Source: an uncultured Verrucomicrobiota bacterium (GTDB lineage: Bacteria; Verrucomicrobiota; Kiritimatiellia; CAJWTS01). From it: 64,000 bases of DNA. Position numbers and translations under genes: made by a program. Location: contig CAJWTS010000011.1 of NCBI GenBank assembly GCA_913047795.1, positions 5,232 to 69,231 of the forward strand, given 5' to 3'. The first letter of the stretch is position 1, and the number at the start of each line of letters is the position of its first letter. Below the pieces are notes generated by a model. That model did not search any database. It saw only the letters and a program-made list of their open reading frames with translations, and was not told where the DNA came from. Positions 5,212-54,552 of the stretch are shown piece after piece.

Positions 5212-6530
<1,319 letters not shown>

Positions 6531-6531
<1 letters not shown>

Positions 6532-8993: not shown

Positions 8994-9013
8994 GATGCGT
9001 GCTTCCGGATTTT

Positions 9014-24859: not shown

Positions 24860-24904
24860 AAATAGGGATAAATATAACCTATTTCCCGATTGTCAGGCCT
24901 ATTT
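24860..24904. promoter_or_regulatory. candidate Rrf2-regulator operator: AAATAGG-N11-CCTATTT inverted repeat plus a second CCTATTT half-site
   Basis: Perfect 7 bp inverted repeat at 24860-24884 and a repeated half-site at ~24898-24904, in the AT-rich promoter region ~60-100 bp upstream of the Rrf2 gene. Confidence 0.4.
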
Positions 24905-24958
24905 TCACCTGCTACTCTCATATTGAGAGTCCTATTCGCTGACTCCACGGAGACGTCA

Positions 24959-25450
24959 ATGGTCAGAATCACTAGAGATATGGAATACGCGCTGATCGCC
25001 CTGCAATACCTGCAGTCCGAATACCCGGGCAAATTAACGTCTGTGAGGCGTATTTGCGATGCCCACGACCTGCCGTTTGATGCCACGTCGCACGTGTTAC
25101 AGCGGCTGAAGCAAGCCGGCGTGGTTCGCTCGCAACAGGGGGTGAACGGCGGGTACCAAATTGTCAAAGATCTGGCGCTGGTATCCTATTATGACCTGCT
25201 CGAGGTGGTCGGAGACCAGATAAAGATAGCATCTTGCCTGGCCGAAAACTGCACCTGCCATCTCGTGAAGTCATGCAATATTATTTCACCGATCATTAGC
25301 CTGAACGATCGTCTGGCCGAGTTCTACCGTGGGATCATGATAAAGGAATTGCTTGATGTTCGCTCGGCCGAAGAGGATCTGATCCGGGATCGGTTCGCCG
25401 TTGTGTCCGCCGACCGGGACGATGTACCGGCTGCGAAGGAGCACAGGTAA
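24959..25450 (+). CDS. Rrf2 family transcriptional regulator (IscR/SufR-like)
   Basis: N-terminal HTH (YALIALQYL) and a C-terminal Cys cluster ([14 protein letters not shown]). Immediately upstream of sufB. Confidence 0.75.
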
Positions 25451-25451
25451 T

Positions 25452-26897
25452 ATGCCGACGGGCGTAGAGAGTGAAAGCAAGCTTGCGCAGGGCTATCGGT
25501 TCGGGTTTGTGTCGGACATCGAGACTGAAACGGTTCCCAAGGGACTGAATGAGGGGATTGTGCGGTTCATTTCTGAGAAGAAGAAAGAACCGCAGTGGCT
25601 ACTCGACTACAGACTGAAGGCGCTCAAGCATTTTCTAACCCTGGATCCACCGGCCTGGGCGCATGTTGACTATCCACCGGTCGACTTCCAGGACATTCGC
25701 TACTACGCCGCGCCAAAATCGCAGGCCGATGGTCCGAAAAGCCTCGCGGATGTCGATGAGGAGTTGCTGGATACCTTCGATCGCCTCGGTATTCCGCTCG
25801 GCGAGCGCGAGCGGTTGGCCGGCGTCGCGGTCGATGCGGTCTTCGATAGTGTGTCCGTGGCGACCACGCACAAGGAAATGCTGGGCGAGCAGGGAATCAT
25901 TTTCTGCTCGTTTTCCGAGGCCGTGCAGGAACATCCGGACCTCGTGCGGGAGAACCTGGGCTCTGTGGTGCCGCACACGGACAACTTCTACGCAGCGCTG
26001 AACGCAGCCGTGTTTACGGACGGGTCGTTTTGCTACATCCCGCGTGACGTGCACTGCCCGGTGGATTTATCCACGTATTTCCGCATCAATGCAGCGGAGA
26101 CCGGTCAGTTTGAACGTACCTTGATCATTGCTGAAGCCGGAAGCCGGGTTTCCTACCTCGAAGGCTGTACGGCACCGATGCGGGATGAGAATCAACTGCA
26201 TGCGGCCGTTGTCGAATTGCTCGCCAAGGACGACGCCGAGATCAAGTACTCCACCGTGCAGAACTGGTACGGCGGGGACGAGCAGGGCCGTGGTGGTATC
26301 TATAATTTCGTAACCAAGCGGGGGAAATGCGCCGGAAAGCGGTCGAAGATCTCGTGGACCCAGGTCGAGGCTGGCTCGGCCATCACCTGGAAGTACCCCA
26401 GCTGCATTCTTCAGGGGGATGATTCGGTGGGTGAATTCTATTCGGTGGCGCTGACAAACAACAGGATGCAGGCCGACACGGGTACAAAAATGATTCATAT
26501 CGGACGCAACACCCGCAGCAGGATCGTCTCCAAGGGGATTTCCGCTGATGAATCGGCGAACAGCTATCGCGGGTTGGTAAAGGTTTTGCCGGGAGCAACC
26601 AACGCGCGCAATCACTCGCAATGCGACTCGATGCTCGTCGGGAACAATTGCAGTGCGAACACCTTTCCGTATCTCGAGATCGCGAATAATACGGCCCACG
26701 TTGAGCATGAAGCCACGACCTCCCGCATTAGTGCTGACCAGATGTTCTACCTGCAGTCGCGCGGACTCGATGCCGAGGCCGCCGTCTCATTGCTGGTGAA
26801 CGGATTTTGCAAAGAGGTGTTTAAGGAGTTGCCGCTCGAATTTTCGGTCGAAGCGGTGAAGCTGCTTGAGATGAAGTTGGAAGGCAGCGTCGGTTGA
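25452..26897 (+). CDS. sufB: Fe-S cluster assembly protein SufB
   Basis: 481 aa with strong SufB-family similarity throughout. AGGT RBS. Confidence 0.9.
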
Positions 26898-26918
26898 TTC
26901 GGCGCAGAAGGAGTCGAC

Positions 26919-27674
26919 ATGTTACAGATTAAGGATTTGGAAGCGCGCGTTGTCGATGGCGCTCCAATTCTCAAAGGTATTTCGCTGACCATTAAGGCGG
27001 GTGAGGTCCATGCAATCATGGGGCCGAACGGCTCGGGCAAGAGCACGCTTTCAAAGATTGTTGCCGGTCATCCCGACTACGAGGTGACGAGCGGAACGAT
27101 CGAATACGAGTTCAATCGCAAGCCGAAGGATCTGTTGACGATGGCGCCGGAGGACCGGGCGCGCGAAGGCGTTTTTATGGCCTTTCAATACCCGGTCGAG
27201 ATTCCGGGGGTTAGCAATTCCGTGTTTCTGCGGGCGGCGTTCAATGAAATTTGTCGTTACCAGGGCGTCGAGGAAATGGATCCGATCGACTTCGACACGT
27301 TTTTGAAGGAGAAGATGAAACTGCTCGAGATGGATCCTGCGTTCGTCGATCGCTACGTCAATGTCGACTTTTCCGGCGGAGAGAAAAAGCGCAACGAGAT
27401 CCTTCAGATGGCGATCATGTCCCCACGCCTGTCGTTCCTCGACGAGACGGACTCGGGCCTCGACGTAGATTCCATGCGGATCGTGGCGGACGGCGTCAAC
27501 AAGTTGCGTTCGGAGCACAACGCGATCGTCCTGATTACGCACTACCAGCGTCTGCTCAACTACATCAAACCGGATGTCGTGCACGTGATCTGCGACGGGC
27601 GAATCGTCCGCAGTGCCGGTCCGGAACTAGCGCTCGAGGTTGAAGAGCGTGGATACGACTGGCTCGCTGCCTAA
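26919..27674 (+). CDS. sufC: Fe-S cluster assembly ATPase SufC
   Basis: Walker A GPNGSGKST, LSGGEKKR signature, ~250 aa. Confidence 0.9.
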   Translation: MLQIKDLEARVVDGAPILKGISLTIKAGEVHAIMGPNGSGKSTLSKIVAGHPDYEVTSGTIEYEFNRKPKDLLTMAPEDRAREGVFMAFQYPVEIPGVSNSVFLRAAFNEICRYQGVEEMDPIDFDTFLKEKMKLLEMDPAFVDRYVNVDFSGGEKKRNEILQMAIMSPRLSFLDETDSGLDVDSMRIVADGVNKLRSEHNAIVLITHYQRLLNYIKPDVVHVICDGRIVRSAGPELALEVEERGYDWLAA

Positions 27675-27682
27675 ACCGCGGG

Positions 27683-29023
27683 GTGGCCGCGCGAGTGGCC
27701 GGCGGGTCCTTTGTCATGAATGTTTCTTCTGTATACGAGGCCGTGACCGCACGTCGAAACGGCGCGGCTCCGGATTGGTGGCGCAGGTTGCGTGCCGAGG
27801 GGCTTGAGCGCTTCGAGTATCTTGGGTTGCCAACGGTACGTGATGAGGAGTGGAAGTATACGAACGTTCGCACGATCGCCGATACCGAATTTGGACTGTG
27901 CGGAAGTGTTGGTGAAGCTGACCTTAACGTCTTCGCGACGCAACGTACGCAGGGCATCGCGGAGCTTGTCTTTGTCGACGGGCTATATTCTGCCGAGGCG
28001 AGTCGCCTGGATACGTTGCCGGAAGGGATTCGGGTTGACCGGTTCGAAGACGCGCTTGATCGCGATCCGGACCGTCTGCAGGCTTGCCTGACCCGCGCAG
28101 CCGTTTCGGATGCGGATGCCTTTACTTCTCTAAACATCGCACTGCTTGATAACGGCGTGCTGATTCGGGCGGATGCGGACGCGACCTGCACCACGCCGAT
28201 TCAACTGACCTTCATCACGACCGCCGCGGCGGAACACGCGTTAATGTCGCCGCGTGTACTGATCGATGCGGGGATCAACAGCCGCCTGGCAGTGGTCGAG
28301 AGTCATGTCTCGCAGACCGATGCTTCCTACATGACCAACCATTTGACGGATATCTTAATCGGACGTGGCGGTCAGGTGGAATACTGCCTGCTACAGTCGC
28401 AGGGCTCCGCCGCGGTGCATGTGGGCACAACGCGTGTCTGGCAGGAGGCCGACTCACGGCTTGAAGCTTTTGCGCTCGAGACCGGCGCAGCGCTGGGTCG
28501 GCAGAACCTTGTCATTCAGATCGAAGGCGCGGGCGCGCATGCGTCGCTCGACGGAATCTACCTGCTGCACGAGGGGCAGCATCTCGATAACCACACCTCC
28601 GTGGTGCATCACCAGCCGAGTTGTACCAGTGATCAACTGTATAAAGGCATACTCAACGGGGCATCACGCGCGGTATTCAACGGCAAGATTTTCGTGGAGC
28701 GGGACGCCCAGATGACCAACGCGTACCAGCTCAATCGCAACTTATTGCTTCACCCGAAAGCGAAGGTAGATACGAAGCCACAGCTTGAGATCTATGCGGA
28801 TGACGTGCGGTGCACCCACGGGGCGACGATTGGACAACTCGACGACGAAGAGATCTTTTATCTCCGCAGTCGCGGAATCGAGGAGACATCCGCGATCACA
28901 ATGCTGGCACGTGGCTTTGCAGCCGAAGTTCTCGGCCGCGTATCCGGCGAGGAAACCGTCAAGATGCTGAAGGGTTGCCTTGATGGATACTTTTTCGAAT
29001 ATGCGCGTCGCGGGGACGCTTGA
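27683..29023 (+). CDS. sufD: Fe-S cluster assembly protein SufD
   Basis: SufB/D-family C-terminal beta-helix region. Positioned after sufC. The start could be the internal Met at 27716. Confidence 0.8.
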   Translation: MAARVAGGSFVMNVSSVYEAVTARRNGAAPDWWRRLRAEGLERFEYLGLPTVRDEEWKYTNVRTIADTEFGLCGSVGEADLNVFATQRTQGIAELVFVDGLYSAEASRLDTLPEGIRVDRFEDALDRDPDRLQACLTRAAVSDADAFTSLNIALLDNGVLIRADADATCTTPIQLTFITTAAAEHALMSPRVLIDAGINSRLAVVESHVSQTDASYMTNHLTDILIGRGGQVEYCLLQSQGSAAVHVGTTRVWQEADSRLEAFALETGAALGRQNLVIQIEGAGAHASLDGIYLLHEGQHLDNHTSVVHHQPSCTSDQLYKGILNGASRAVFNGKIFVERDAQMTNAYQLNRNLLLHPKAKVDTKPQLEIYADDVRCTHGATIGQLDDEEIFYLRSRGIEETSAITMLARGFAAEVLGRVSGEETVKMLKGCLDGYFFEYARRGDA

Positions 29024-29063
29024 CGGGAATGGAGGGGTGTTTTGGGGCTCCGGGACGATTTGA

Positions 29064-30314
29064 ATGAGTACGACGATAGAACAAATGAATCGGGTTAGCT
29101 TCGACGCCGATCGAATCCGTGCCGATTTTCCGGCCGCGACACGGACCGTTCACGATGGCCGGCGCCTGGTGTATTTGGACAACGCCGCGACGACACTCAA
29201 GCCGCGTGTCGTGGTGGACGCCCTGGCGGAACATATGCTGTTGGGTGCCTCAAACGTTCATCGCGGATTGCACTATCTTAGTGAGCGCGCAACGGAAGCC
29301 TACGAGGCGGCGCGCGACAGCGTCTGCGACTTCATTCATGCGGCGGCGCGCGAAGAAATTGTCTTTACGAACGGAACAACCGCCGCGATCAACCTGGTTG
29401 CGCATTCGTTCGGATCCCTGCTCGGCGAAGGCGATGAGATCGTTGTTTCGCAGATGGAGCACCATTCCAACATCGTGCCGTGGCAGCTCCTATGTGAACG
29501 GCGCGGGTGTGTTTTGCGCGTGGCGCCGATCGACAAGAACGGAGAACTGATCCTGGATGCCTACCGCGACATGCTGAGCGATCGCACGCGTCTGGTCTCG
29601 ATGGTCTACGTCTCGAACTCGTTGGGAACCGTGAACCCGATCGAAGAGATTATCGCCGGCGCGCATGCCGTCGGAGCAAAGGTTCTGGTCGACGCCGCGC
29701 AGGCGGTTGCGACGAGGGCGATTGATGTGCAGGCATTGGATTGTGATTTTCTGGCGTTCTCGGCGCATAAACTCTTTGGGCCGACGGGCGTCGGCGTGCT
29801 CTACGGTAAGCAGGTGCATCTCGAAGCGATGCCGCCGTTTTTGGGCGGTGGTGACATGATCGCATCGGTGCGCTTTGAGAAAACGGAGTACAATCGGCTG
29901 CCGTACAAATTCGAGGCGGGAACCGGTAATATTGGCGGCGTGATTGCTCTTAAGCCGGCGATCGATTACGTGAGCGCGATCGGCTTTGACGCCATTCAGG
30001 CCCACGAGCAGGATTTGCTCACCTACGCCACGGACGTACTGCGGGGTCATGAGGGTCTGCGCCTGATCGGCACGGCGCGCGAAAAGGCCGCGATTGTATC
30101 ATTCCTTGTGGGGGAGGTGCATGCGCACGATGTTGGCTCGATCCTGGACCAGGAGGGAGTCGCGATTCGGGCCGGTCATCATTGCACCCAGCCGGTCATG
30201 GAGTTTTTCGAAGTTCCGGCTACGGCGCGCGCTTCGTTTTCGATCTATAATACGCGCGAAGACGTAGATGCGTTGTCCTTGGCCGTGCGCAAGGTGGAGG
30301 AACTGTTTGAATGA
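29064..30314 (+). CDS. sufS: cysteine desulfurase SufS
   Basis: Class V aminotransferase. PLP lysine region SAHKLFGPTGVGVLY and active-site HHCTQP. Confidence 0.85.
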   Translation: MSTTIEQMNRVSFDADRIRADFPAATRTVHDGRRLVYLDNAATTLKPRVVVDALAEHMLLGASNVHRGLHYLSERATEAYEAARDSVCDFIHAAAREEIVFTNGTTAAINLVAHSFGSLLGEGDEIVVSQMEHHSNIVPWQLLCERRGCVLRVAPIDKNGELILDAYRDMLSDRTRLVSMVYVSNSLGTVNPIEEIIAGAHAVGAKVLVDAAQAVATRAIDVQALDCDFLAFSAHKLFGPTGVGVLYGKQVHLEAMPPFLGGGDMIASVRFEKTEYNRLPYKFEAGTGNIGGVIALKPAIDYVSAIGFDAIQAHEQDLLTYATDVLRGHEGLRLIGTAREKAAIVSFLVGEVHAHDVGSILDQEGVAIRAGHHCTQPVMEFFEVPATARASFSIYNTREDVDALSLAVRKVEELFE

Positions 30315-30763
30315 GCGCCCTCGACGAGTTGTACCAGCAGGTGATCATCGAGCACAATCGTAAGCCGCGGAATTTTCGTGTGATCGAGAATGCGACGTAC
30401 GTCGCCGAAGGCTTCAATCCTATCTGTGGCGATCATTTTCATATCTACATCGTCGTGGGTGACGATGGCTGCATTGAGGACGTTGCGTTTGACGGAAAGG
30501 GTTGTGCGATTTCGAAGGCGTCGGCATCCATGATGACTCAGGCGCTGATCGGAAAGTCGGAGATCGAAGCGCGACAACTCTTCGCGGAGTTCAATTCCCT
30601 GGCGAAGGGCGACCTCGATCCCGATAAGGATGATAATACGCTGGGCAAGTTGGCTGTGTTTAGCGGGATCTGGAAGTTTCCAGCCCGTGTAAAATGCGCT
30701 GTGCTCGCCTGGCATACCGCCACCAGCGCATTGGACGAGGTCGACATTGTGTCGACCGAGTAG
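30311..30763 (+). CDS. sufU: SufU/NifU-like sulfur transfer scaffold
   Basis: NPICGDHFHIYI...GKGCAISKASASMMT, the NifU N-terminal domain signature. 4 bp overlap with sufS. Confidence 0.75.
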   Translation: MSALDELYQQVIIEHNRKPRNFRVIENATYVAEGFNPICGDHFHIYIVVGDDGCIEDVAFDGKGCAISKASASMMTQALIGKSEIEARQLFAEFNSLAKGDLDPDKDDNTLGKLAVFSGIWKFPARVKCAVLAWHTATSALDEVDIVSTE

Positions 30764-31331: not shown

Positions 31332-33107
31332 TCAGACAGGGATCGGTTCCGTCGCATCGGATTTTGTCACACAGCGACTCACCTTCTGCACGCTGATGCA
31401 TCCGGTCGGGCAGACCTCGAGGCAGGCATTGCAGCGGATGCAGTCGTTCTGATTGATGAAATACTCGTCGTTGTAGCTGTCGGTGCCCTTGTTGTTGCCG
31501 AACTCTACGATGCGTCCGTCAGGGTCCAACTCCAGCGACGGGGTGCGTACGATGCAATCCGGGCGAGGTTTGACTACGATGCATTGGTCGCACTGAATGC
31601 AGCGGGAATTATCAATCTCATATTTATAATAGCAAAGATAACACCGCGCGGATTCCTCCTTCGCCGCGGACTCCTCGTAGCCCTGTTCGACCTCATTTGT
31701 GAGGTCTCGTGCTTCGAGCGGCAGGGTGGGCATATCGTGCAAATCGACAAGGTCCATTTCGCGCGTACGGGGAAACTCGCGGCCGTCCTCGACATAGGCG
31801 ACTTCCTGCATACGACGATTGCCCATCAGGTAGGTGTCGACGTCGAGCGCACACTGTTTCCCATGCGCAATCGCTTCGATGAGCGTGGCGGCCCCCGTTG
31901 AGAAATCGCCGGCCGCGAAGATCTGCTCCAGGGCGGTCTTCTGTCCGGGACTGCTCAGTAGCCATTCGTCGTCGCCGACGAGCTTGCGATAGAGATCCTT
32001 GTCGATGAAATCGGTTTTGGGGAATTGGCCCGTGGCAAGCAGGATGATGTCGGCGGGCACATCGAACTCGCTTCCTTCGATTTCGATCGGCCGGCGCCGG
32101 CCACTCTCATCCGGTTCGCCGAGTTCGGTCTTGATAAAGCGCATGGCCTTGATGTGTCCATTCTCGCCGATGTACTCTTTAGGCGAGACCATGAAATCCA
32201 TCGGAATGCCTTCGACTTCGAGTTCTTCCAACTCGCCGGGTGTGATCAGCATCTCGTTGACCGAACGCCGATAGCAAACACGAATCTGCTTGGCGCCGAG
32301 CCGGTAGGCCGTGCGCGAACAGTCCATGGCGGTGAAGCCACCGCCGATCACAAGCAGGTTGTCACCGACGGGTGCTTTGTCGTTTTCGTTTGCTTCAAGC
32401 AGCCACGGGATTCCGTGGTAAATGCCTTCTAGGTCGGCACCGGGTAGCCGAAGGTAATTCTCTCGCAACGTGCCGCAGGCCATCACCACTGCGTCCTGCG
32501 TATCGAGGAGTTCGCGCATCGTGATATCAATGCCGATGCTCGTGTTGCAAATGATTTCCACGCCCTGGCGACGCACCTGGTCGATCTCGCGATCGATGTG
32601 CTCGCGCGGGAGCCGAAATTCGGGGATGCCCTGGTTCATCATGCCGCCGGGCTTGTTGTGTTTCTCGTAGACGGTGGGGGTGTGGCCCATCATGGAAAGG
32701 TTGCGCGCGCAGGCCAGGCCCGCGGGGCCGGCGCCGATGATGGCGATCTTCTTCCCGGTTTCGGGGTACAGACGGTCGAATACGACGATATCTTCGGACT
32801 TCAGATCGGAGGCGGCACGTTTGGAGAAGCATATCGCCAACGAGTCGCCGAGGCCGTCCCAACCGTGGCGGCAGGTTTCTTCGCAGGGCCGGGAGCAGAC
32901 ACGTCCAAGTACAGCCGGGAAAACGTTGTCACGCAGGTTGATCCGGTACGCTTCGTCGAACTCTCCGCGATAGATCGCGCCGAGGTATCCCGGAATATCC
33001 GTGTGGGCGGGACAGCTTTCCTGGCAGGGAATATTTTTGGCGACCCAGTCAAGGTCTCGCGGATCGCTCGCGATTCCCTCGGGTTGAGTTAAGGCACGTT
33101 CAAGCAT
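31332..33107 (-). CDS. GltD-family NAD(P)H-dependent Fe-S flavoprotein oxidoreductase with C-terminal 2x[4Fe-4S] ferredoxin domain
   Basis: N-terminal Cys-rich region (CQESCPAHTDIPGY...CSRPCEETCRHG), IAIIGAGPAGLACA dinucleotide motif, and C-terminal CIQCDQCIVV...CIRCNACLEVCP. Confidence 0.7.
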   Translation of the reverse strand: MLERALTQPEGIASDPRDLDWVAKNIPCQESCPAHTDIPGYLGAIYRGEFDEAYRINLRDNVFPAVLGRVCSRPCEETCRHGWDGLGDSLAICFSKRAASDLKSEDIVVFDRLYPETGKKIAIIGAGPAGLACARNLSMMGHTPTVYEKHNKPGGMMNQGIPEFRLPREHIDREIDQVRRQGVEIICNTSIGIDITMRELLDTQDAVVMACGTLRENYLRLPGADLEGIYHGIPWLLEANENDKAPVGDNLLVIGGGFTAMDCSRTAYRLGAKQIRVCYRRSVNEMLITPGELEELEVEGIPMDFMVSPKEYIGENGHIKAMRFIKTELGEPDESGRRRPIEIEGSEFDVPADIILLATGQFPKTDFIDKDLYRKLVGDDEWLLSSPGQKTALEQIFAAGDFSTGAATLIEAIAHGKQCALDVDTYLMGNRRMQEVAYVEDGREFPRTREMDLVDLHDMPTLPLEARDLTNEVEQGYEESAAKEESARCYLCYYKYEIDNSRCIQCDQCIVVKPRPDCIVRTPSLELDPDGRIVEFGNNKGTDSYNDEYFINQNDCIRCNACLEVCPTGCISVQKVSRCVTKSDATEPIPV

Positions 33108-33651: not shown

Positions 33652-35067
33652 CTAACGCCCGGGCCGGTGGAAGTGGTCGCTGCGGCCAAGGAACAGTTCC
33701 GCCGCTTCCATGAGGGTTTCGCTCATGGTGGGGTGGGGATGGATGGTCAGGGCAAGATCCTCGGCCGTGGCACTCATCTCAATCGCCAGTGCGCCCTCGG
33801 CAATGAGTTCGCCCGCTCCGCTACCGACGAGTCCGACGCCGAGCAATCGCTTGCTATCGGGTTCGAATAGCAGCTTTGTCAGGCCCTCGCTGCGGTCCAT
33901 GGCGATCGCGCGTCCGGAAGCGGCCCAGGGGAACGTGACCGCTTTGTAGGCGGCCCCCGAGGCCTTGGCTTCGGACTCGGTCAGGCCGCACCAGGCTATT
34001 TCGGGATTGGTAAAGACCACGGCCGGGATTGCGCGCGGGTCCCAGCGGACCTTCTCGCCGGCAATGACCTCAGCCGCCACGTGCGCTTCGTGGCTGCCCT
34101 TGTGCGCCAGCATGGGATTACCCGCAACGTCGCCCACGGCGTAGACGTTCGGTTCCGCCGTACGGCGCTGGTCGTCCGTGGCGATAAACCCGTTCTCGTC
34201 GAGTGCGACCGACGTGTTCTCAAGGCCGAGTCCCTCGGTATTCGGTTGGCGTCCGACCGAGACCAGGATCTTGTCGAAGACCTGCTCCTCGTCGGGTGCC
34301 TGCTTGCCTTCCATCCGCACCGTGACGCCGGCATCGGACTCGCTCATTTCGGCGACGCTGGTCTCCAGCAATATCCCTTCGAGCCGGTCGCTCAGGCGTT
34401 TGGCGAGGACCGTCACCAAATCGGGATCCGCACCGGTCAACAGGGCGGGCAACATCTCGACAACCGTGACGCGGCTACCGAGCGCGGCGTAGACCGTGGC
34501 AAGTTCGAGGCCGATATAACCTCCTCCGATCACAAGCAGGGTGGGCGGTATGCTTTCCAGTGCGAGGGCCTGGGTGGAATCCATCACGCGTGAGGAGTTC
34601 GGCAGGAGGGCAGGAATAACGCTCGGCCGCGAACCGGTTGCAATTATCGCGCTGTCAAAGGCGAGCGACTGGTCGGCGCCGTCCAGGCGGGTAATGTTAA
34701 GCGTGTGGGCGTCGATAAAGGTGGCCGTGCCCTGTATGTATTCAATCTTGCGGCTCTTCGCCAGGCCGCCCAGGCCGCCCGTTAGGCGGGTGATGACGCC
34801 GTCCTTCCACGCACGAAGTTTCTCGACGTCGATCGTCGGGTCGGAAAATCCGATTCCCCAATCGGATGCGGATCGTGCTTCTTCAACCAATTTTGCCACA
34901 TGCAGGAGCGCCTTGGAGGGGATGCAGCCGCGATAGAGACAGACTCCGCCGGGGTTGGTCTCGGCGTCGACCAGCGTCACCTTCAGTCCGATGTCGGCCG
35001 CGCGGAAGGCGGCAGCATAGCCGGCCGGACCGGCGCCGATGACGGCGAGATGTTTGGGTTCACTCAT
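33652..35067 (-). CDS. lpdA: dihydrolipoyl dehydrogenase (E3)
   Basis: IGAGPAGYAAAF FAD motif, redox disulfide GGVCLYRGCIPSK, ~470 aa. Start placed at MSEPKH (ATG 35067) rather than the longer listed ORF. Confidence 0.85.
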   Translation of the reverse strand: MSEPKHLAVIGAGPAGYAAAFRAADIGLKVTLVDAETNPGGVCLYRGCIPSKALLHVAKLVEEARSASDWGIGFSDPTIDVEKLRAWKDGVITRLTGGLGGLAKSRKIEYIQGTATFIDAHTLNITRLDGADQSLAFDSAIIATGSRPSVIPALLPNSSRVMDSTQALALESIPPTLLVIGGGYIGLELATVYAALGSRVTVVEMLPALLTGADPDLVTVLAKRLSDRLEGILLETSVAEMSESDAGVTVRMEGKQAPDEEQVFDKILVSVGRQPNTEGLGLENTSVALDENGFIATDDQRRTAEPNVYAVGDVAGNPMLAHKGSHEAHVAAEVIAGEKVRWDPRAIPAVVFTNPEIAWCGLTESEAKASGAAYKAVTFPWAASGRAIAMDRSEGLTKLLFEPDSKRLLGVGLVGSGAGELIAEGALAIEMSATAEDLALTIHPHPTMSETLMEAAELFLGRSDHFHRPGR

Positions 35068-35101
35068 GCGTTGCCTGATGGAATGGGAGCGGCCCTGTTG
35101 T

Positions 35102-36400
35102 TCAGCTGTCCAGCGCCAGTAGCATGGGGTTCTGCATCGCCTCGTCGATGAATCGCGTGAATCGCGCTCCGTCGGCGCCATCAATGACGCGGTGATCGTA
35201 GGATAGTGCGAGCGGCATGAAGAGGCGTGGCACGAACGTTCCGTTTTCGTAGACGGGTTCGTGCGCGCCGCGTGCGACGCCGAGGATCGCGACTTCGGGC
35301 CAATTGATGATCGGGGTAAAAGCTGTTCCGCCAATGCCGCCCAGGTTAGAGATCGTAAAGGTCCCGCCCTGCATATCGTCCAGTTTCAATTTTCGATCGC
35401 GGGCCTTTGCCGAAATCTGAGTCAGTTCGATCGAGATTTCGGTGATGCTCTTCTTGTCGACATCACGCAGGACCGGGACCAGGAGACCGTTCTCCGTGTC
35501 GACCGCCACGCCGATGCTGATGTAGTCCTTTAGCACGATCTGTTTGTTGGCGAAATCGACGCTGGAATTGAATTGCGGAAATTCACGGAGGGCAGCCGCG
35601 ACGACCTTGACGAGGATGGCCGTCAGGGTGAGTTTGCCGCCGTCCTCTTCGACGCGCTTCTTGTATTGTTGGCGGAAGGCTTCGACCGACGTGACATCGG
35701 CTTTGTCGAACTGTGTGACGTGCGGAATGACTGACGCATTGTGGGTCATGGCTTCGGCCGTAACGCGTCGGATATTGTTCATGGGTTGCGTCTCGACAAT
35801 GCCCCATTTGGAAAAATCAGGGAGCGGTTTCGCGAGCGGGTTCTGTTGGGTGGGAACAACGGTCGCGCGCGATTGGAGAAGTTGCTTGGAGTGGCGTTTG
35901 ACGTCGTCGGCCGACAGACGCCCGCGGGGCCCGGTGCCGGCAACCGCCGCGATATCGACTCCGATCTCGAAAGCCAGGCGTCGCACGGCGGGCGAGGCGG
36001 GTACGCGGGCGCCGGGTGGCTGTCGCTGTGGCTGTGGCTGTGGCTGTGGCTGTGGCGGGTCCGCGGCTGGTTCAGCGGCGGGAGTTTTCGCTTCATCGTT
36101 TACGGGTGGTGCGTCGGCCTGCGGTTCACTGTCGGCGGGCACATCGGCCGTGATACCGGTTCCGTCGTCGTCCAGCACGAGGAGGACCTGGCCGACGCTC
36201 ACGGTATCGCCTTCGCTGACGAGGACATCCTTGATCGTTCCGGCGACATCGGACGGGACTTCGACGGTCGCCTTGTCGGTCTCGATCTCGACCACGGAGT
36301 CGTCGACCGCAATCGTATCGCCGGGCGCAACGAGCACGCCGACCACCATGCCTTCTTCGATATTCTCGCCCAGCTCGGGAAGTTTCATTTCAGTGGCCAT
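35102..36400 (-). CDS. aceF: dihydrolipoamide acetyltransferase (E2)
   Basis: Lipoyl domain (IETDKATVEVPS), PQ-repeat flexible linker, E3-binding domain, and catalytic domain with DHRVIDGA. Confidence 0.85.
   Translation of the reverse strand: MATEMKLPELGENIEEGMVVGVLVAPGDTIAVDDSVVEIETDKATVEVPSDVAGTIKDVLVSEGDTVSVGQVLLVLDDDGTGITADVPADSEPQADAPPVNDEAKTPAAEPAADPPQPQPQPQPQRQPPGARVPASPAVRRLAFEIGVDIAAVAGTGPRGRLSADDVKRHSKQLLQSRATVVPTQQNPLAKPLPDFSKWGIVETQPMNNIRRVTAEAMTHNASVIPHVTQFDKADVTSVEAFRQQYKKRVEEDGGKLTLTAILVKVVAAALREFPQFNSSVDFANKQIVLKDYISIGVAVDTENGLLVPVLRDVDKKSITEISIELTQISAKARDRKLKLDDMQGGTFTISNLGGIGGTAFTPIINWPEVAILGVARGAHEPVYENGTFVPRLFMPLALSYDHRVIDGADGARFTRFIDEAMQNPMLLALDS
36021..36056. repeat. 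hexanucleotide microsatellite (TGTGGC)6 encoding the (PQ)n E2 linker
   Basis: Six tandem TGTGGC units (one imperfect) read directly. Encodes PQPQPQPQPQ on the minus strand within aceF. Confidence 0.6.
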
Positions 36401-36412
36401 CTTGAATGCCTC

Positions 36413-39073
36413 CTAGGCGCGCATAGGATTCGGTTTTTCGGGATCGATGTCCAGTTTGCGAATGGCATCGGACAGGATCGATTGCTCGACTTTGCCGTCT
36501 TCGTGCAACGCCGTCAGGGTGGCGAGAACAACGAAGCGCGCGTCTACTTCGAAGTATTCACGTAACGCTTCTCGCGTGTCGCTGCGCCCATAACCGTCGG
36601 TGCCAAGCGCGTAGAATCGCCCCGGAATCCATTTTGCGATCTTATCGGAGAGCACCTTCATGTAATCGGATGCGGCGATAAAGACGCCGGACTCGTTTGC
36701 GAGTAACTCGCCCAGGTAGGGGCGTCGCGGTTCGCTAGCGGGATGCAGCATGTTCCATCGATCGCAATCGAGCGCGTCCCGGCGCAGCTCGTTGTAGCTT
36801 GTGACGCTCCAGACATCGGCCGCGACCCCGTACGTTTCCAGTATGCCCTGCGCGTCGAGCACGCATTGCATGATGGCGCCGCTGCCGAGTAGATGTGCCC
36901 GGTGTTTACCCTCGGCGTTTTCGGCCGCCTTGAAGCGGTACATGCCGCGCAGCACACCTTCGCGACAGTCGCCGGGCATCGCGGGCATGTGAATCTTCTC
37001 GTTGCCAAGTGTCAGGTAGTAGATGATGTTTTCCTGTTCTTTATACATGCGCCGGATGCCGTCGCGAATAATCAACGCGACCTCGTAGGCAAAGGAGGGG
37101 TCGTAGCTGACGACGTTTGACATGACGCTGCTGAGCACGTGACTATGCCCGTCCTGGTGCTGTAGCCCTTCGCCGTTCAGCGTCGTTCGGCCGGAGGTCG
37201 CACCGAGCAGAAAGCCGCGGCACATCATGTCGCCGGCGGCCCACATCAGGTCGCCGGTCCGCTGGTAGCCGAACATGGAGTAGTAGATGTAGAAGGGGAT
37301 CATCGGAATCCCGAGTTCCGCGTACGATGATCCGGCCGCGATGAAGGATGACATGGCGCCCGCTTCATTGATGCCTTCTTCGAGAATCTGCCCCGTTGTC
37401 GATTCCTTGTAGTAGCTCAAAGTGTCGGAATCGACGGGTTCATAGAGTTGGCCGACCGAGGAATATATTCCTATCTGACGGAAGAGCGCGTCCAGTCCGA
37501 ACGTACGTGCCTCGTCCGGAATGATGGGTACGATATACTTTGCGATCGGCTTGTATTTCAGCAAACGGCGCAGGATGTCGGCATAGACCTGTGTGGTTGC
37601 GATGTCGCGCTTACCGGAGCTCTCAAAGAGGTTCGAAAAAAGTTCCTCGGGCGGCGTCGAAAGTGATTCGCATTCGACGTGGCGTGACGGCATGCTGCCG
37701 CCGAGGCTCTTGCGGCGGTCGTGGAGATACACCATTTCCGGGCTTTCGGCGGCCGGCAGGTAGAACGGACAGGAACGTAAATCTTGGTCCGAGATGGGAA
37801 TGCCGAATCGTGTGCGAAACTCGCGCAGCTCGTCTTCGTTCAGCTTCTTCTGTTGATGCGTAATGTTCTTGCCTTCGCCGCTCTCTCCCAGTCCGTAGCC
37901 CTTGACGGTCTTGGCCAGGATGACGGTCGGGCTGCCGCTGTGCTCGACCGCATGTTTGTAGGCGGCATAGACCTTGACCGGGTCATGACCGCCCCAGGAA
38001 AGCCGGTTCAATACGTCGTCGGTCAGATGCTCGACCATTTTGAGGAGGCGCGGATCCTTGCCGAAGAAGTGTTCGCGAATATACGCACCGTCTTCGACGA
38101 TATATTTCTGATATTCACCGTCGACGCATTCCTCCATACGGGCTTGCAGCAGGCCGTCTTCATCGGCGGCAAGAAGGGAATCCCAATCGCTGCTCCAGAT
38201 GACCTTGATTACGTTCCAGCCGGCACCGCGGAAGATGCCTTCGAGTTCCTGGATAATCTTGCCGTTTCCACGCACGGGTCCGTCGAGACGTTGCAGGTTG
38301 CAGTTCACGACCCAGATCAGGTTGTCGAGTTTCTCACGACTGGCCAGCCCGATCGCGCCGAGCGCTTCGGGCTCATCCGATTCGCCGTCGCCAATGAAGG
38401 CCCAGACTTTGCCGCCGTTGTCCGCCTTCAGGTCCCGGTTCTCGAGGTAGCGTAGAAAGCGCGCCTGGTAGATGCTCATGATCGGCGCGAGGCCCATCGA
38501 CACCGTGGGGAAACTCCAGAAGTCCGGCATGATGCGCGGGTGCGGATAGGAGGTCAGTCCGCCGTCGGACTCCAGGTCGCGACGAAAGTTCTCGAGCAGC
38601 TTCGTTTCGAGTCGCCCTTCGAGGTAGGCGCGCGCGTAGATTCCCGGCGAGGCATGCCCCTGAAAGTAGATCGAGTCGCCGCCGTAGTCATCCGTGCGGG
38701 CGCGGAAGAAGTGATTGAAGCCGATTTCGTAAAGAGTGGCGCTCGACGCGAAGGTCGAGATGTGACCACCGAGGCTTGAATCCGTGTGATTGGCCCGCAC
38801 GACCATCGCCATAGCGTTCCAGCGGATGATGCTCTTGATTCGCCGCTCGATCTCGCGGTCACCGGGAAAGGCCGGCTGCGTTTCTGGATCGATGGTGTTG
38901 GTATACGGTGTATTCGCCGTGAAGGGAAAGCGGACGCCGGAGTTGTAGGCGTGGACCTGCAGATTCTTTAGCAATTCCTGCGCCCGCTCCGGACCGTCAT
39001 GCTCCAGAACGTAGTCCAGGGAGTCAATCCACTCCCGGGTCTCGATGTCGTCGTGTGTTAATTTATCGGGCAC
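36413..39073 (-). CDS. aceE: pyruvate dehydrogenase E1 component, homodimeric type
   Basis: 886 aa. N-terminal HDDIETREWIDSLDYVLEHDGPERAQELL is typical of AceE, followed by TPP-binding GDG. Confidence 0.9.
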   Translation of the reverse strand: MPDKLTHDDIETREWIDSLDYVLEHDGPERAQELLKNLQVHAYNSGVRFPFTANTPYTNTIDPETQPAFPGDREIERRIKSIIRWNAMAMVVRANHTDSSLGGHISTFASSATLYEIGFNHFFRARTDDYGGDSIYFQGHASPGIYARAYLEGRLETKLLENFRRDLESDGGLTSYPHPRIMPDFWSFPTVSMGLAPIMSIYQARFLRYLENRDLKADNGGKVWAFIGDGESDEPEALGAIGLASREKLDNLIWVVNCNLQRLDGPVRGNGKIIQELEGIFRGAGWNVIKVIWSSDWDSLLAADEDGLLQARMEECVDGEYQKYIVEDGAYIREHFFGKDPRLLKMVEHLTDDVLNRLSWGGHDPVKVYAAYKHAVEHSGSPTVILAKTVKGYGLGESGEGKNITHQQKKLNEDELREFRTRFGIPISDQDLRSCPFYLPAAESPEMVYLHDRRKSLGGSMPSRHVECESLSTPPEELFSNLFESSGKRDIATTQVYADILRRLLKYKPIAKYIVPIIPDEARTFGLDALFRQIGIYSSVGQLYEPVDSDTLSYYKESTTGQILEEGINEAGAMSSFIAAGSSYAELGIPMIPFYIYYSMFGYQRTGDLMWAAGDMMCRGFLLGATSGRTTLNGEGLQHQDGHSHVLSSVMSNVVSYDPSFAYEVALIIRDGIRRMYKEQENIIYYLTLGNEKIHMPAMPGDCREGVLRGMYRFKAAENAEGKHRAHLLGSGAIMQCVLDAQGILETYGVAADVWSVTSYNELRRDALDCDRWNMLHPASEPRRPYLGELLANESGVFIAASDYMKVLSDKIAKWIPGRFYALGTDGYGRSDTREALREYFEVDARFVVLATLTALHEDGKVEQSILSDAIRKLDIDPEKPNPMRA

Positions 39074-39303
39074 GGCGTTCTCGGCATTTTCCCTTTTCGG
39101 AGCCTCACGGGCTAGTGATGGACATCCGCAATTTTGGGATAGGCGTCTGCGCCGAGGTGTCAGCGCGTGTGATCAATCCACCCTCCCAATAGCATATGAC
39201 AGCCTGCGAGCCGTCTCGAAATCAGATTCGCATTGTTGATAAGAGAGCGACGCTTGTCAAGCTGCGCAACGGATCGGGGAAGGGCCGTCGAGATTACGAA
39301 AAT

Positions 39304-40740
39304 CTACGAACCGTTGACGGCCGCGAGCGCTTCCGCCATGAGTTCGCGCGGTCGCGCGAACAGATCATCGACGCTTATTTCGCCGGCATCCACGTTCTTC
39401 AGCAGTTCACGCTGCGCCAGGTAGTCGTTATTCTGGATTCCGGCTTTGCTCTGCAGCATCCGCCAGGACTTGCGGCGTTCGACGGCCAGCAGCACCATCT
39501 GTCGCGACAGCGCCACATGTTTCAGATTTCCCTTCACTTCGTGCGTGATGTAGGCGCCGAAGTCCTCAATGAACGCACGGTGTTTCCGATTGAATACAGA
39601 GCGGTTCACGACATCGTTCTGCGTCACGCGCACCAGTATGTCCTCGAGGTGGACCATGCCCTTGATATCCTCGTCCTTGAGCTTCTTCAGGTGCTTGCGA
39701 AAGCGTGCTTCCGACAGTGCCCAGTGCGCCACGGTGAAGGCGTACTCGGCACCGGATGACTTGTACTTTGTCATCCACCAGTCACGGTTCTGGGACGGGT
39801 TGCCCTTGACGTCGAAAGATTCCTGATAGGTCTCGCCCGATTGCGGTCGGAACACGAACTCCGGTACGCCGCGCGAGTCGCGAATGCCCTGCGCCTGCTG
39901 GGTCGACATATCGTCCGCGACGCCGTGTTCCGGCTGGCAGGTGGTGAAGGCCTGGAAGAACGAGGTCCCGCGGTACTCCAGCCCTTCCAGCATGCATTTG
40001 TACATCTTGGCGGAGTTCGCCATCGAAACCTGGCAGACCATGGGGGAGCCGTGACCCGCGGTCAGGGATTCGGCCACGCTCTTCTTCTCGCAAAGTTTGC
40101 CCTGGCTGAAGCTGCCGAATTGATTCATGTCGAATCCTCCCACCATCAGCGAGGAGTCCGAGTTCTGACCACCGGTGTTCGAATAGACCTGCGTGTCCAT
40201 CATCAGCATGTTGACGTTGGGACGATTCTGCACGATTGCCTTCGATACGTTCTGATAACCGATATCACCAAATGCGCCGTCGCCGCCGACGGCCCAGACC
40301 TTCGGCAGTTCCTTGATCTCCTGCTCGTTCATCGCCGTGTCGGTCATGCGTGTCAGGTCGAAGTAGTCCCCTTCGCCCAGTGTAGGTTCGTCGCCGGAGA
40401 GAAGGAAGTCGCAGAGACGTTCGGGTACAACCGAGCGACGCGCGTGGTGGATGATGAGCGACTCGCCGATCATCCAACTGATCGTGGCGCCGTCTTGAAA
40501 CAGGGAGTTCATCCAGGGGTAGGGATGCGGATTCGACGGTGGCGTTGAACCGTAGACCGAGTTGCAGCCCGTGCTGGCGCCCATAGCCATCACGGCCATG
40601 CCGTTTGCCAATCTTCCGTCGAGCGCCTGCAGTTCACTATGATTAAAGGCATCCTGGCGCATCACGGCACACATGGCATCGACAAGCACGTCGTCCTGAA
40701 ACACACGAGAAAACACTGAAAAACAGTTGGGTAGTGACAT
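39304..40740 (-). CDS. N-terminally truncated pyruvate:ferredoxin oxidoreductase (NifJ/PFOR) C-terminal TPP-binding domains VI-VII; possible gene remnant
   Basis: Contains ASTGCNSVYGSTPPSNPHPYPWMNSLFQDGA and VWAVGGDGAFGDIGYQN...LMMDTQVYSNTGGQ, matching PFOR domain VI. The ~700 N-terminal residues of full-length PFOR (domains I-V) have no coding space upstream, because a plus-strand ECF sigma gene starts 29 bp away. Confidence 0.55.
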   Translation of the reverse strand: MSLPNCFSVFSRVFQDDVLVDAMCAVMRQDAFNHSELQALDGRLANGMAVMAMGASTGCNSVYGSTPPSNPHPYPWMNSLFQDGATISWMIGESLIIHHARRSVVPERLCDFLLSGDEPTLGEGDYFDLTRMTDTAMNEQEIKELPKVWAVGGDGAFGDIGYQNVSKAIVQNRPNVNMLMMDTQVYSNTGGQNSDSSLMVGGFDMNQFGSFSQGKLCEKKSVAESLTAGHGSPMVCQVSMANSAKMYKCMLEGLEYRGTSFFQAFTTCQPEHGVADDMSTQQAQGIRDSRGVPEFVFRPQSGETYQESFDVKGNPSQNRDWWMTKYKSSGAEYAFTVAHWALSEARFRKHLKKLKDEDIKGMVHLEDILVRVTQNDVVNRSVFNRKHRAFIEDFGAYITHEVKGNLKHVALSRQMVLLAVERRKSWRMLQSKAGIQNNDYLAQRELLKNVDAGEISVDDLFARPRELMAEALAAVNGS

Positions 40741-40768
40741 GAGTCATACCCGATTTTGAATGTAGTTT

Positions 40769-41374
40769 ATGAAGGATATGGATCCATTTCTGGAATTGAT
40801 CGAAGAATACCACGACCAGTTTTATCGCTATGTGTATCGAATGGCGTGGGATACGGGAAAAGCTGACGACATCTTTGCCGAAGCCGTACTCGCTGCTTAT
40901 CAGAATCGCGAAAAATTTCAACTGGGCACGAATTTTCGGGCCTGGATGTTTCGCATCCTTACCAACAAGTGTTTTGTTGCAAACCGTGAGACGGCACGTG
41001 CGTTTGATTCGCTTGATGAGAAGGATATCGAGGTCCCTGCGCGCGGCGGTAACGAGGTGTATGAGGCGGCGATCGAGGATCCGGATGCGTTTCTCGGCGC
41101 CTGTGGAGACGAGGTCTACATCGCTATTCGAGCTCTTTCCAGCGCGCAGCGCGCTTGCCTGCTCATGCGCGTCGTCGAAGGATTTTCGTATCAGGAGATC
41201 GCAAATGTATTGGAGATGCCGTTAGGCACCGTGATGACGCACCTGGCTCGCGGTCGCGCGCGATTGCGCAGGGAACTCGCCGCGTATGCCACGGCCGAAG
41301 GGATTGTCAACGAGCCGATTCGGCTGATTGCGCCGGACGACGAAAACAAGGACATAGCCGATCATGGATCGTGA
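40769..41374 (+). CDS. ECF-type RNA polymerase sigma-70 factor
   Basis: Region 2 (FRAWMFRILTNKC) and region 4 (SYQEIANVLEMPLGTVMTHLARGR). Confidence 0.8.
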   Translation: MKDMDPFLELIEEYHDQFYRYVYRMAWDTGKADDIFAEAVLAAYQNREKFQLGTNFRAWMFRILTNKCFVANRETARAFDSLDEKDIEVPARGGNEVYEAAIEDPDAFLGACGDEVYIAIRALSSAQRACLLMRVVEGFSYQEIANVLEMPLGTVMTHLARGRARLRRELAAYATAEGIVNEPIRLIAPDDENKDIADHGS

Positions 41375-42089
41375 CGAATTGAGATCAGCCTATCTGGACG
41401 GCGAACTTTCGGTTGCCGAGGCGCTCGCGTACGAGAAGTCGCTGACAGAACAGGAATGCTCCGGACTCATCGCGGAGCGCAGGTTCGAGGCGTCTTTGGG
41501 GGAGACCATACGCTCCGACATCCGCTGCCCGGATCCGCTCTGGCATCGCGTGAAGGCCCGCATTCGCGATGAACACCGTGTGCGGTTCATAGGCGTCGGT
41601 TGGCGATGGGGTGCCATCGGTGCCGCTGCCACGGCGCTGGTCTTGATCTCGATCATCGTTCCAGAAGCGCTTCGCGGCCAGACGGCCTTTCTCGAGCCGG
41701 TGGCATCCCTCGAGGCGTTGCGACAGGATGCCGATATTCCGGCCGACCTGAATGCCGTGGCACATTTCCTGGCCAGTCACAAAATGGCGTTGACGTTGCG
41801 CATGACGCCCACGATCCGCGAGACCGATTCGCATACGCATCAGGTCACCTTCCTCGGCGCGCGCGAACGCAAGGTTGGCAGTGAGAAGGTCGTGCAGCTC
41901 ATGTATAACTGTTGCGGCACACCCGCCGTGGTCCTGCTGTCCCATCAGAATACAGAGGTGGCCGACCGCATCCTGCGCGCGTCGCGCGAACAGCGTATCC
42001 AGGCGTCGCGCCGGGTTGGACCCTACGTGGTCGGTCTCGTGAGCAAGCATCACGCACCGGTCCTGCTGCGACTCGTGGGCCAGATCTGA
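41364..42089 (+). CDS. putative anti-sigma factor (single TM)
   Basis: Overlaps the sigma gene by 11 bp. N-terminal YLDGEL..E anti-sigma motif and a central TM helix. Confidence 0.5.
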   Translation: MDRDELRSAYLDGELSVAEALAYEKSLTEQECSGLIAERRFEASLGETIRSDIRCPDPLWHRVKARIRDEHRVRFIGVGWRWGAIGAAATALVLISIIVPEALRGQTAFLEPVASLEALRQDADIPADLNAVAHFLASHKMALTLRMTPTIRETDSHTHQVTFLGARERKVGSEKVVQLMYNCCGTPAVVLLSHQNTEVADRILRASREQRIQASRRVGPYVVGLVSKHHAPVLLRLVGQI

Positions 42090-53829: not shown

Positions 53830-54552
53830 CTAGTTTTCGTACCCCAACCTGCTAAGGGTGTCAGGTGGAAAAAGCTCACGGAAAAGATCGTAGTGATGAG
53901 GCTGGAACAGAGAATGATAAGTTTTAGTGTCCAATTGCGATCTGGTCACATACGCCGGATAGTTCACTATGGTATTAAGATCAAATGGCTTAGATACTCT
54001 CAACAGAATCTCTTCTGAAAATTCAAGGTGTCCAGCGATTCTGGAAATTGTCGATTGGTAGTCATTTTCAAATTCTTCAAGTTTCAAATTGAGGAATCTT
54101 CTGTCGGAAAAGGGAAAGTGATAGATATTCATGATTACTCCTCTAGATAGATTTTGCATTTCAAAAGAAATACCATCTTCAGATTGGAGGCGCTCTTTGT
54201 ATGTCTTTCCCGTATCTTTCCACTCTGTATTAACCCAGGGTTCATCAATTCTTTGATGCCATCGATATGCAGATGCAATGATTTCATAAGGATGACGGAT
54301 TACGTGTATCCCTTTTACTGTTAAATTTTCTATTCGCAGATTACCGCCCCACGATACGAATTTGTAATCAACAGATTGATCCACTTCTGCACTACTTTCA
54401 TAGACAATCACGTCTGCGTCATTCGGAACTTCCGAAGTGGTAGAAAGGTCGTAATAAGTCAAACCCACCTCTTGAGCAATGGCTCGAGCTATTCTGCCGC
54501 ACAGGTGATGACCAGTTTTGTGATGTGTGATAAAAATTCGTTTGAACATCAT
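53830..54552 (-). CDS. putative sulfotransferase-family protein (low-GC gene)
   Basis: 240 aa with an N-terminal phosphate-binding-loop-like FITHHKTGHH and a sulfotransferase-like size and fold. GC is roughly 40% against ~63% for the surroundings. Confidence 0.45.
   Translation of the reverse strand: MMFKRIFITHHKTGHHLCGRIARAIAQEVGLTYYDLSTTSEVPNDADVIVYESSAEVDQSVDYKFVSWGGNLRIENLTVKGIHVIRHPYEIIASAYRWHQRIDEPWVNTEWKDTGKTYKERLQSEDGISFEMQNLSRGVIMNIYHFPFSDRRFLNLKLEEFENDYQSTISRIAGHLEFSEEILLRVSKPFDLNTIVNYPAYVTRSQLDTKTYHSLFQPHHYDLFRELFPPDTLSRLGYEN

Follow-up and report, generated by a model that had tools for sequence, protein, structure and literature searches.

The 64,000-nucleotide stretch of DNA analysed here (hereafter the window) comes from an uncultured Verrucomicrobiota bacterium of the Kiritimatiellia (contig CAJWTS010000011.1, assembly GCA_913047795.1, positions 5,232–69,231). 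Upstream of a pyruvate dehydrogenase (PDH) operon, aceE-aceF-lpd, it carries an open reading frame (ORF) of 478 codons, ORF478, that resembles pyruvate:ferredoxin oxidoreductase (PFOR). We consider it very probable, from comparison with related sequences, that ORF478 is a young deletion pseudogene, i.e., the 3' part of a PFOR-like gene encoding ~1,570 aa that has lost its 5' part, and not a new stand-alone enzyme.

ORF478 is a complete frame, with an in-frame TGA two codons 5' of its ATG, and an exact-sequence cluster look-up returned the identical protein on four further contigs. Its sole Pfam match is TPP_enzyme_C (residues 147–260, E 4.8e-6), a thiamine pyrophosphate (TPP) domain, and its best structure matches are homodimeric PFORs from domain VI onward, namely residues 956–1138 of 6cin (Moorella thermoacetica) and 833–1080 of 1b0p (Desulfovibrio africanus). 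When aligned to these two structures, the TPP/Mg motifs are intact: GGDGAFGD (residues 152–159) and MDTQVYSNTGGQ (residues 181–192). The cysteines of the TGC and TTC motifs are kept along with the GDG...N motif, while the two CxxC cluster ligands are deleted; the D. africanus counterpart of the first retained cysteine, Cys840, is a ligand of the proximal [4Fe-4S] cluster, following the ligand numbering of 1B0P. The ferredoxin-like domain V, with its two [4Fe-4S] clusters, is absent according to both Pfam and the hidden Markov model (HMM) of the family described below. ORF478 scores 79.7 bits against TIGR02176, for which the equivalog cut-off is 911, and its matches to PorB models are partial (60 bits vs. 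a cut-off of 405).

Relatives of ORF478, gathered by protein and DNA-pattern searches, share 57–68% identity with it and come from many phyla. In 38 complete loci, the homologous region forms the C-terminus (~465 aa) of a single ORF that is 1,521–1,734 aa long (mostly 1,560–1,620). A family profile of 1,569 positions was built from 38 full-length proteins, and residues 15–477 of ORF478 are collinear with its last 461 positions; over these residues, family members are 60–68% identical to ORF478. ORF478 thus corresponds to only the last 30% of a full-length protein of this long-form clade, with ~1,100 residues missing. The original prediction had recognised that the ORF holds only the TPP-binding, C-terminal part of a PFOR, which Pfam, the alignments to 6cin and 1b0p and the family HMM all bear out, but the ~700 aa it counted as missing were an underestimate. 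It also placed the start of the ORF just after the conserved CPGCGE motif; to judge from relatives, the breakpoint lies ~95 residues downstream of CxxCGE, and the homologous part begins there, within a family-specific insertion. As for the Met that it credited to the ORF itself, the ATG is indeed present but lies in former spacer DNA and is an accident of the join: PFOR homology begins only at residue ~15–16, the Met and the first ~15 codons being non-PFOR sequence, and the same ATG occurs, non-coding, in relatives.

Members of the long-form clade are found in metagenome-assembled genomes (MAGs) of Verrucomicrobiota, Planctomycetota, Acidobacteriota, Actinomycetota, Myxococcota, Gemmatimonadota and Bacteroidia (loci L003–L052, e.g., L004:6710–11404; the labels L001–L064 designate the related contigs or loci compared with the window). 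In databases, they are labelled merely “pyruvate-ferredoxin/flavodoxin oxidoreductase” or “thiamine pyrophosphate-dependent enzyme”. From its N-terminus, a representative full-length member is composed of POR_N, PFOR_II, POR and a 2x[4Fe-4S] domain interrupted by ~110 inserted aa, followed by CxxCGE, an insertion of ~95–130 aa, TGC, the TPP domain and a C-terminal extension of ~200 aa. The structures closest to such a member are PFORs (E ~1e-75), and the best NCBIfam model is TIGR02176, on which it reaches 387.3 bits, below the cut-off of 911; NCBIfam holds no model that the clade passes. On account of this score, the parent of ORF478 is a distinct long PFOR-like clade and not canonical nifJ, so that the label “nifJ-like” of the original prediction is imprecise. 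Literature searches on the clade, or on PFOR loss in the lineage of ORF478, returned nothing specific and no experimental work.

Nothing else of the parent gene was detected in the window. When the six-frame translation of the 64 kb was searched with the full-family HMM, ORF478 (profile positions 1104–1564) was the only match; neither this HMM nor tblastn with the N-terminal part revealed a POR_N, PFOR_II or POR domain, and the same two approaches returned no degraded N-terminal remnant. The window also contains no other gene for a 2-oxoacid:ferredoxin oxidoreductase (OFOR) and no mobile-element gene.

The ancestral state of the locus is visible in related contigs. As originally predicted, a gene for an extracytoplasmic function (ECF) sigma factor diverges from ORF478 close to its ATG (28 nt, against the 29 bp originally given), and the PDH operon follows 230 nt downstream on the strand of ORF478. 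Searching with the sigma factor yielded two informative relatives, in which the sigma protein is 100% and 88% identical, respectively. One contig, L059 (GCA_029935935.1, 1,674 nt), is 98.6% identical to positions 40690–41840 of the window. Past the shared stretch, it continues with ~209 nt more spacer (287 nt in total) and then, on the opposite strand, with the 5' end of a PFOR-like gene, of which it encodes the first 105 residues (MANRSDSTALENGV...KYPGIRVTCNGNHLVGYHTE..., profile positions 8–96, in POR_N). L064 (95% nucleotide identity) has the whole undeleted spacer and reaches its contig end there, while L058 (82% nucleotide identity; sigma 88% identical at the amino-acid level) is arranged like L059 and includes no fewer than 385 codons from the N-terminal end of the PFOR-like gene. 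In L058, the reading frame of this gene is shifted within a (GC)5 run of POR_N (L058:554–1108, minus strand), which may be an assembly error or an independent inactivation. Since L059, L064 and L058 all show the same sigma gene beside the spacer and/or the PFOR 5' end, the sigma/anti-sigma pair was the divergent neighbour of a full-length gene already before the lesion.

Comparison with these contigs also locates the lesion, hereafter Delta-1. Codons 1–15 of ORF478 (MSLPNCFSVFSRVFQ) align at ~98% to the spacers of L059 and L063 (a further contig described below), and they align to those of L058 and L064 as well; in all four contigs, the ATG of ORF478 lies in intergenic DNA and is non-coding. 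Around the junction, the window reads ...GTTTCAG GACGAC GTGCTT... and L059 reads ...GTTTCAG CACGAC TCTATT..., so that a microhomology of up to 5 nt (ACGAC) is possible. Delta-1 very probably corresponds to a deletion of ~3.5 kb, comprising ~209 nt of spacer and roughly the first 1,105–1,115 codons. Four other assemblies, which stem from different samples and were made with different assemblers, share this junction at 99.9–99.99% identity over 10–20 kb; the sequences concerned are a 75-kb Tara scaffold, one JGI contig, one k119 contig and one k127 contig, the last from ERR599008. The source name of one match places the sigma gene in the mesopelagic sample of TARA_085 (0.22–3 µm fraction). Besides coding sequence, the window allele has lost a TGCTAAAAT element resembling an extended −10 promoter, which is found ~80 nt 5' of the sigma gene (L059:505–525) and is conserved in L058, L059, L063 and L064 (window positions 40690–40768 compared); its loss may have altered or rewired the expression of the sigma/anti-sigma pair.

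A second, different deletion was found in close relatives. A cluster look-up returned four proteins at least 90% identical to ORF478 but only 214–222 aa long, from at least four assemblies in which these remnants are called “PFOR”. One of them is carried by L063, a contig of 17.2 kb that is 98.3–98.6% identical to the window over 17 kb and shares its synteny from a DUF4159 gene through sigma to aceE-aceF-lpd; the remnant (L063:7816–8858) corresponds to window positions 39304–40295. Of the ancestral spacer, ~57 nt that the window has lost are still present in L063, which matches L059 up to position 468 and lacks window positions 40296–40695, i.e., 400 nt of further coding sequence. Because L063 has more spacer yet less coding sequence than the window, its deletion (Delta-2) and Delta-1 are independent, neither being derivable from the other, and within a single species-level population the PFOR-like gene has lost its 5' part on two occasions or more. 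The Delta-2 remnant has suffered further changes: at the site equivalent to window 39646, a +1 insertion leads to a premature stop, G231D and Q269R affect residues invariant in 38 of 38 relatives (Q269 neighbours a Cys ligand), and V176L is present as well. This is the picture of neutral decay. Given the different and larger deletion, the frameshift and the invariant-residue substitutions of L063, loss of the gene is recurrent and the remnant is clearly decaying in this sister allele, with weak or non-significant signs of decay in the window allele itself. Among the explanations in the original prediction, the decaying remnant of an ancestral PFOR is the one supported, the undeleted relatives and the mapped junction agreeing with it.

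Altogether, we propose that the ancestor of this marine species (Tara mesopelagic) had a single PFOR-like gene of ~1,575 codons, divergent from the ECF sigma/anti-sigma pair and located upstream of aceE-aceF-lpd, whose product would have comprised, in order, POR_N, PFOR_II, POR, the split 2x[4Fe-4S] domain, CxxCGE, the insertion, the TPP domain and the C-terminal extension. One deletion of ~3.5 kb, probably mediated by microhomology, would have removed the ~209-bp spacer segment together with the first ~1,100 codons. The segment in question is the PFOR-proximal side of the spacer, where the promoter and ribosome-binding site of the gene presumably lay. The gene from codon ~1105 onward would then have been joined to spacer DNA containing a chance in-frame ATG. 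In PFORs, as known from 1B0P and 6CIN, the TPP site is formed by domains I and VI, and electrons exit via the proximal cluster, whose ligands are CxxC...C...C, and via the two clusters of domain V. The predicted product of the truncated gene would be without the pyrimidine-binding domain I, which contributes half of the TPP site, and without the ferredoxin domain; of the four proximal-cluster Cys ligands, it would have only two. Because domain I, domain V and the CxxC pair are missing, ORF478 alone is predicted to be unable to catalyse the oxidoreductase reaction. It is probably poorly expressed and non-functional, pyruvate oxidation being presumably carried out by the adjacent PDH complex.

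Several observations weigh against this interpretation. The 478-codon frame is intact, 123 of the 125 family-invariant residues are kept, and codon usage is native, with a GC content at third codon positions (GC3) of 0.76. At columns conserved in at least 90% of the family, ORF478 shows 13 private deviations out of 183, the highest count among 39 sequences (median 4), but it is also the most isolated sequence of this set, which qualifies the count, and its excess at conserved sites is not significant (7/31 unique states vs. a pooled ~14% in other isolated sequences). Over the remnant shared by Delta-1 and Delta-2, there are four synonymous and six non-synonymous differences plus an indel; the resulting ratio of non-synonymous to synonymous substitution rates (dN/dS), 0.43, rests on 10 substitutions, too few to decide, while most neighbouring genes lie at 0.03–0.34. 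Furthermore, the full-length gene of the same species was never seen on one contig, only its first 105 codons being observed, and a gene for an N-terminal partner may sit outside the 64 kb searched. The open and little-damaged frame is nevertheless explained if the deletion is recent, because a strain 98.6% identical still retains the 5' end.

If ORF478 were the product of gene fission, that is, a working C-terminal subunit pairing in trans with a ~1,100-aa N-terminal subunit encoded elsewhere, its intact ORF, its retained TPP motifs and its 123 conserved invariant residues would be expected, and its matches to PorB-type models would fit, as OFORs occur naturally as separate subunits. We nonetheless hold fission to be very unlikely. 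No N-terminal homologue exists in the window, and the break falls off the natural alpha/beta boundary, ~95 residues past CxxC, so that the cluster ligands would be distributed over two chains. Moreover, the start codon and the 5' end are accidental spacer DNA, the promoter side of the ancestral spacer is gone, and in the sister strain the breakpoint is another one, accompanied by a frameshift and by changes at invariant residues. The apparently split forms in databases that were inspected are all artefacts. Approximately 13 of the top 120 homologues are 483–509 aa long, and five located on long contigs were inspected (L001, L002, L055, L056 and L057). In 5/5, the N-terminal ~1,070–1,090 aa are encoded directly upstream with uninterrupted homology, and what shortens the frame is an ambiguous base in L056, a run of Ns at a scaffold gap in L057 and, in L001, L002 and L055, one indel in a long-read assembly of low coverage; it should be noted that picking homologues of ~490–510 aa forces the break into that region. 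A natural split or a short stand-alone family was rejected on these grounds: the five are broken full-length genes and not short proteins with conserved N-termini, which leaves the stand-alone TPP-domain protein of the original prediction unsupported.

Alternatively, the intact Delta-1 frame might have been retained for a new role, with expression driven by a new promoter. In one version, ORF478 would bind TPP and work in trans with an N-terminal half whose gene lies elsewhere; in another, it would modulate the neighbouring PDH or the sigma gene, the promoter region of which is now overlapped by ORF478. A milder form of the same idea would see the recurrent deletions as the adaptive loss of an iron-rich enzyme (three [4Fe-4S] clusters) in an iron-poor, oxygenated ocean, by a genome that also uses a nickel superoxide dismutase (NiSOD) and PDH. 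We regard either form of this reading as very unlikely. The original prediction further envisaged that the sigma/anti-sigma pair had been inserted beside the PFOR gene, displacing its 5' part, or that the ORF marks a rearrangement breakpoint. The GC3 of the sigma gene (0.60), below that of its neighbours, and the fall of local GC to ~0.50 at 40500–41000 could be read as signs of such an insertion or rearrangement, with or without further neighbours, but relatives at 98.6%, 95% and 82% nucleotide identity already have the sigma gene by an intact spacer and/or PFOR 5' end, and the window is free of mobile-element genes. These relatives contradict the displacement, which we deem extremely improbable, and they identify the lesion as an internal 5' deletion instead. 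Finally, a chimeric join or a collapsed contig might have created the truncated ORF during assembly: the window is evidently derived from a metagenome, and frameshifts, ambiguous bases or scaffold gaps are indeed present in several related database entries. Such an artefact is just as hard to credit, since the four further contigs with the same junction come from different samples and assemblers and since the microhomology at the junction (≤~5 nt) is too short to fool an assembler.

The probable deletion pseudogene can be set against several known systems. With the NifJ-type homodimeric PFORs of D. africanus (1B0P) and M. thermoacetica (6CIN), ORF478 shares domain VI onward, the GDG...N motif and two proximal-cluster cysteines, while domains I–V and the CxxC ligands are missing. 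The intact parent is itself ~350–400 aa longer than these enzymes, with insertions that split the ferredoxin domain and separate CxxC from TGC and with a C-terminal extension of ~200 aa; within the long-form clade itself, members are single full-length ORFs, whereas ORF478 is the C-terminal part only. Like the PorB/KorB beta subunits (e.g., 9BT4 chain C), it has the TPP-binding PP domain on a separate polypeptide. OFOR beta subunits are ~290 aa long, possess all four Cys ligands, including an N-terminal CxxC, and are encoded beside the gene of the alpha subunit; ORF478 has neither this size nor the CxxC, and there is no alpha-subunit gene in the window. It also parallels the pseudogenes produced in bacterial populations by 5' truncation at short homologies, with which it shares a mapped junction, an accidental start and a second, further decayed allele with an independent breakpoint; the case is unusual solely in the clarity with which three allelic states can be told apart in metagenomes.

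At this locus beside the PDH operon, gene loss is caught under way: three allelic states can be distinguished, one with the 5' end intact and two with independent deletions. Such an event is ordinary in kind, and the value of the case lies in a correction of annotation and in a small case study of gene loss: taken at face value, the automated labels (“pyruvate-ferredoxin/flavodoxin oxidoreductase”) on ORF478 and on the 214–222-aa remnants would falsely imply a PFOR-based, anaerobic-type pyruvate metabolism in reconstructions from MAGs. Only the parent clade, widespread and uncharacterised, is mildly novel.

The neighbourhood of ORF478 is summarised in Table 1. The sigma gene and the 241-aa ORF that overlaps it occur as a pair in L058, L059, L063 and L064. 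Named homologues of the sigma factor and of AceE are mostly from Candidatus Hydrogenedentes. No consistent synteny is shared between the genes of the window and the neighbours of full-length family members, a single Vicinamibacteria locus having sufS and a gltD-like gene (the latter in L033) near the full-length PFOR-like gene, and in the next-closest relative of aceE (L054, 73%), just 540 nt upstream of aceE are covered, with no PFOR C-terminus. Adjacency to PDH is particular to the clade of the window organism. Scans for Rfam families, tRNAs, promoters and terminators were uninformative, except for the promoter-like site before aceE. Regarding lpd, the mechanical ORF (33652–35334, minus strand, 560 aa) has a TTG start and overlaps aceF, while the gene as called on four identical contigs is 471 aa long, and its start at 35067 is probably the true one.

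Table 1. Coordinates of ORF478, its segments and its neighbours in the window.
Feature	Position	Strand	Remarks
ORF478, complete ORF, very probable chimeric deletion product	39304..40740	-	478 aa, ATG start
PFOR-derived segment of ORF478	39304..40695	-	family HMM positions 1104-1564 of 1569, E 1e-242
Codons 1-15 of ORF478, former sigma-proximal intergenic DNA including the fortuitous ATG	40696..40740	-	MSLPNCFSVFSRVFQ
TPP_enzyme_C match of ORF478	39961..40302	-	
Cys59 of ORF478 (TGC motif)	40564..40566	-	aligns with D. africanus PFOR Cys840
Cys268 of ORF478 (TTCQPEHG)	39937..39939	-	aligns with D. africanus Cys1071; second retained cluster ligand
Delta-1 deletion junction	40689..40696		BLAST identity to L059 ends at 40690, to L063 at 40696
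Position matching the Delta-2 (L063) junction	40295..40296		join in GGDG motif, imperfect ~13-nt repeat
Residual spacer between ORF478 ATG and sigma gene	40741..40768		28 nt; ancestral spacer 247-287 nt
ECF sigma factor gene, already divergent from the PFOR-like gene in the ancestral locus	40769..41374	+	
241-aa ORF overlapping the sigma gene, presumed anti-sigma factor	41364..42089	+	no Pfam match
Sigma-70-like promoter match between remnant and aceE	39232..39260	-	TTGACA-17-AACAAT; consensus match only
aceE	36413..39073	-	230 nt downstream of ORF478, same strand
aceF	35102..36400	-	PDH operon
lpd	33652..35067	-	PDH operon; whole operon 33652..39073

Several other genes of the window deserve mention. 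Directly downstream of lpd lies a gene for a 591-aa GltD-like flavoprotein (Fer4_20 + Pyr_redox_2) whose C-terminus bears a 2x[4Fe-4S] domain (31332–33107, minus strand); the Vicinamibacteria locus L033 has a similar gene beside its full-length PFOR-like gene. Between lpd and this gene, L063 has ~630 nt of extra DNA (L063:14717–15347, relative to window 33440/33441), overlapping a 302-aa PHP-domain gene call that is missing from the window. Next come the NiSOD gene (PF09055, 30786–31277, minus strand), whose product has the N-terminal hook HCQIPCGIY, and, adjoining it, a SUF operon for iron-sulfur assembly with an Rrf2 regulator (24890–30763). The SUF operon, the NiSOD, the GltD-like iron-sulfur flavoprotein and PDH are consistent with an aerobic marine lifestyle. 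Elsewhere in the window, a 240-aa ORF without a Pfam match (53830–54552, minus strand) has a GC3 of 0.38, vs. 0.56–0.78 in all its neighbours, and may be foreign or not a real gene. Finally, two ABC-3 permeases of the Mn/Zn type (5212–6531 and 6531–8066, both on the minus strand) each possess a C-terminal DtxR-type metal-binding domain (Fe_dep_repr_C) and adjoin genes for a ZnuA-like binding protein, an ATPase and a DtxR/FeoA regulator (8166–10680).

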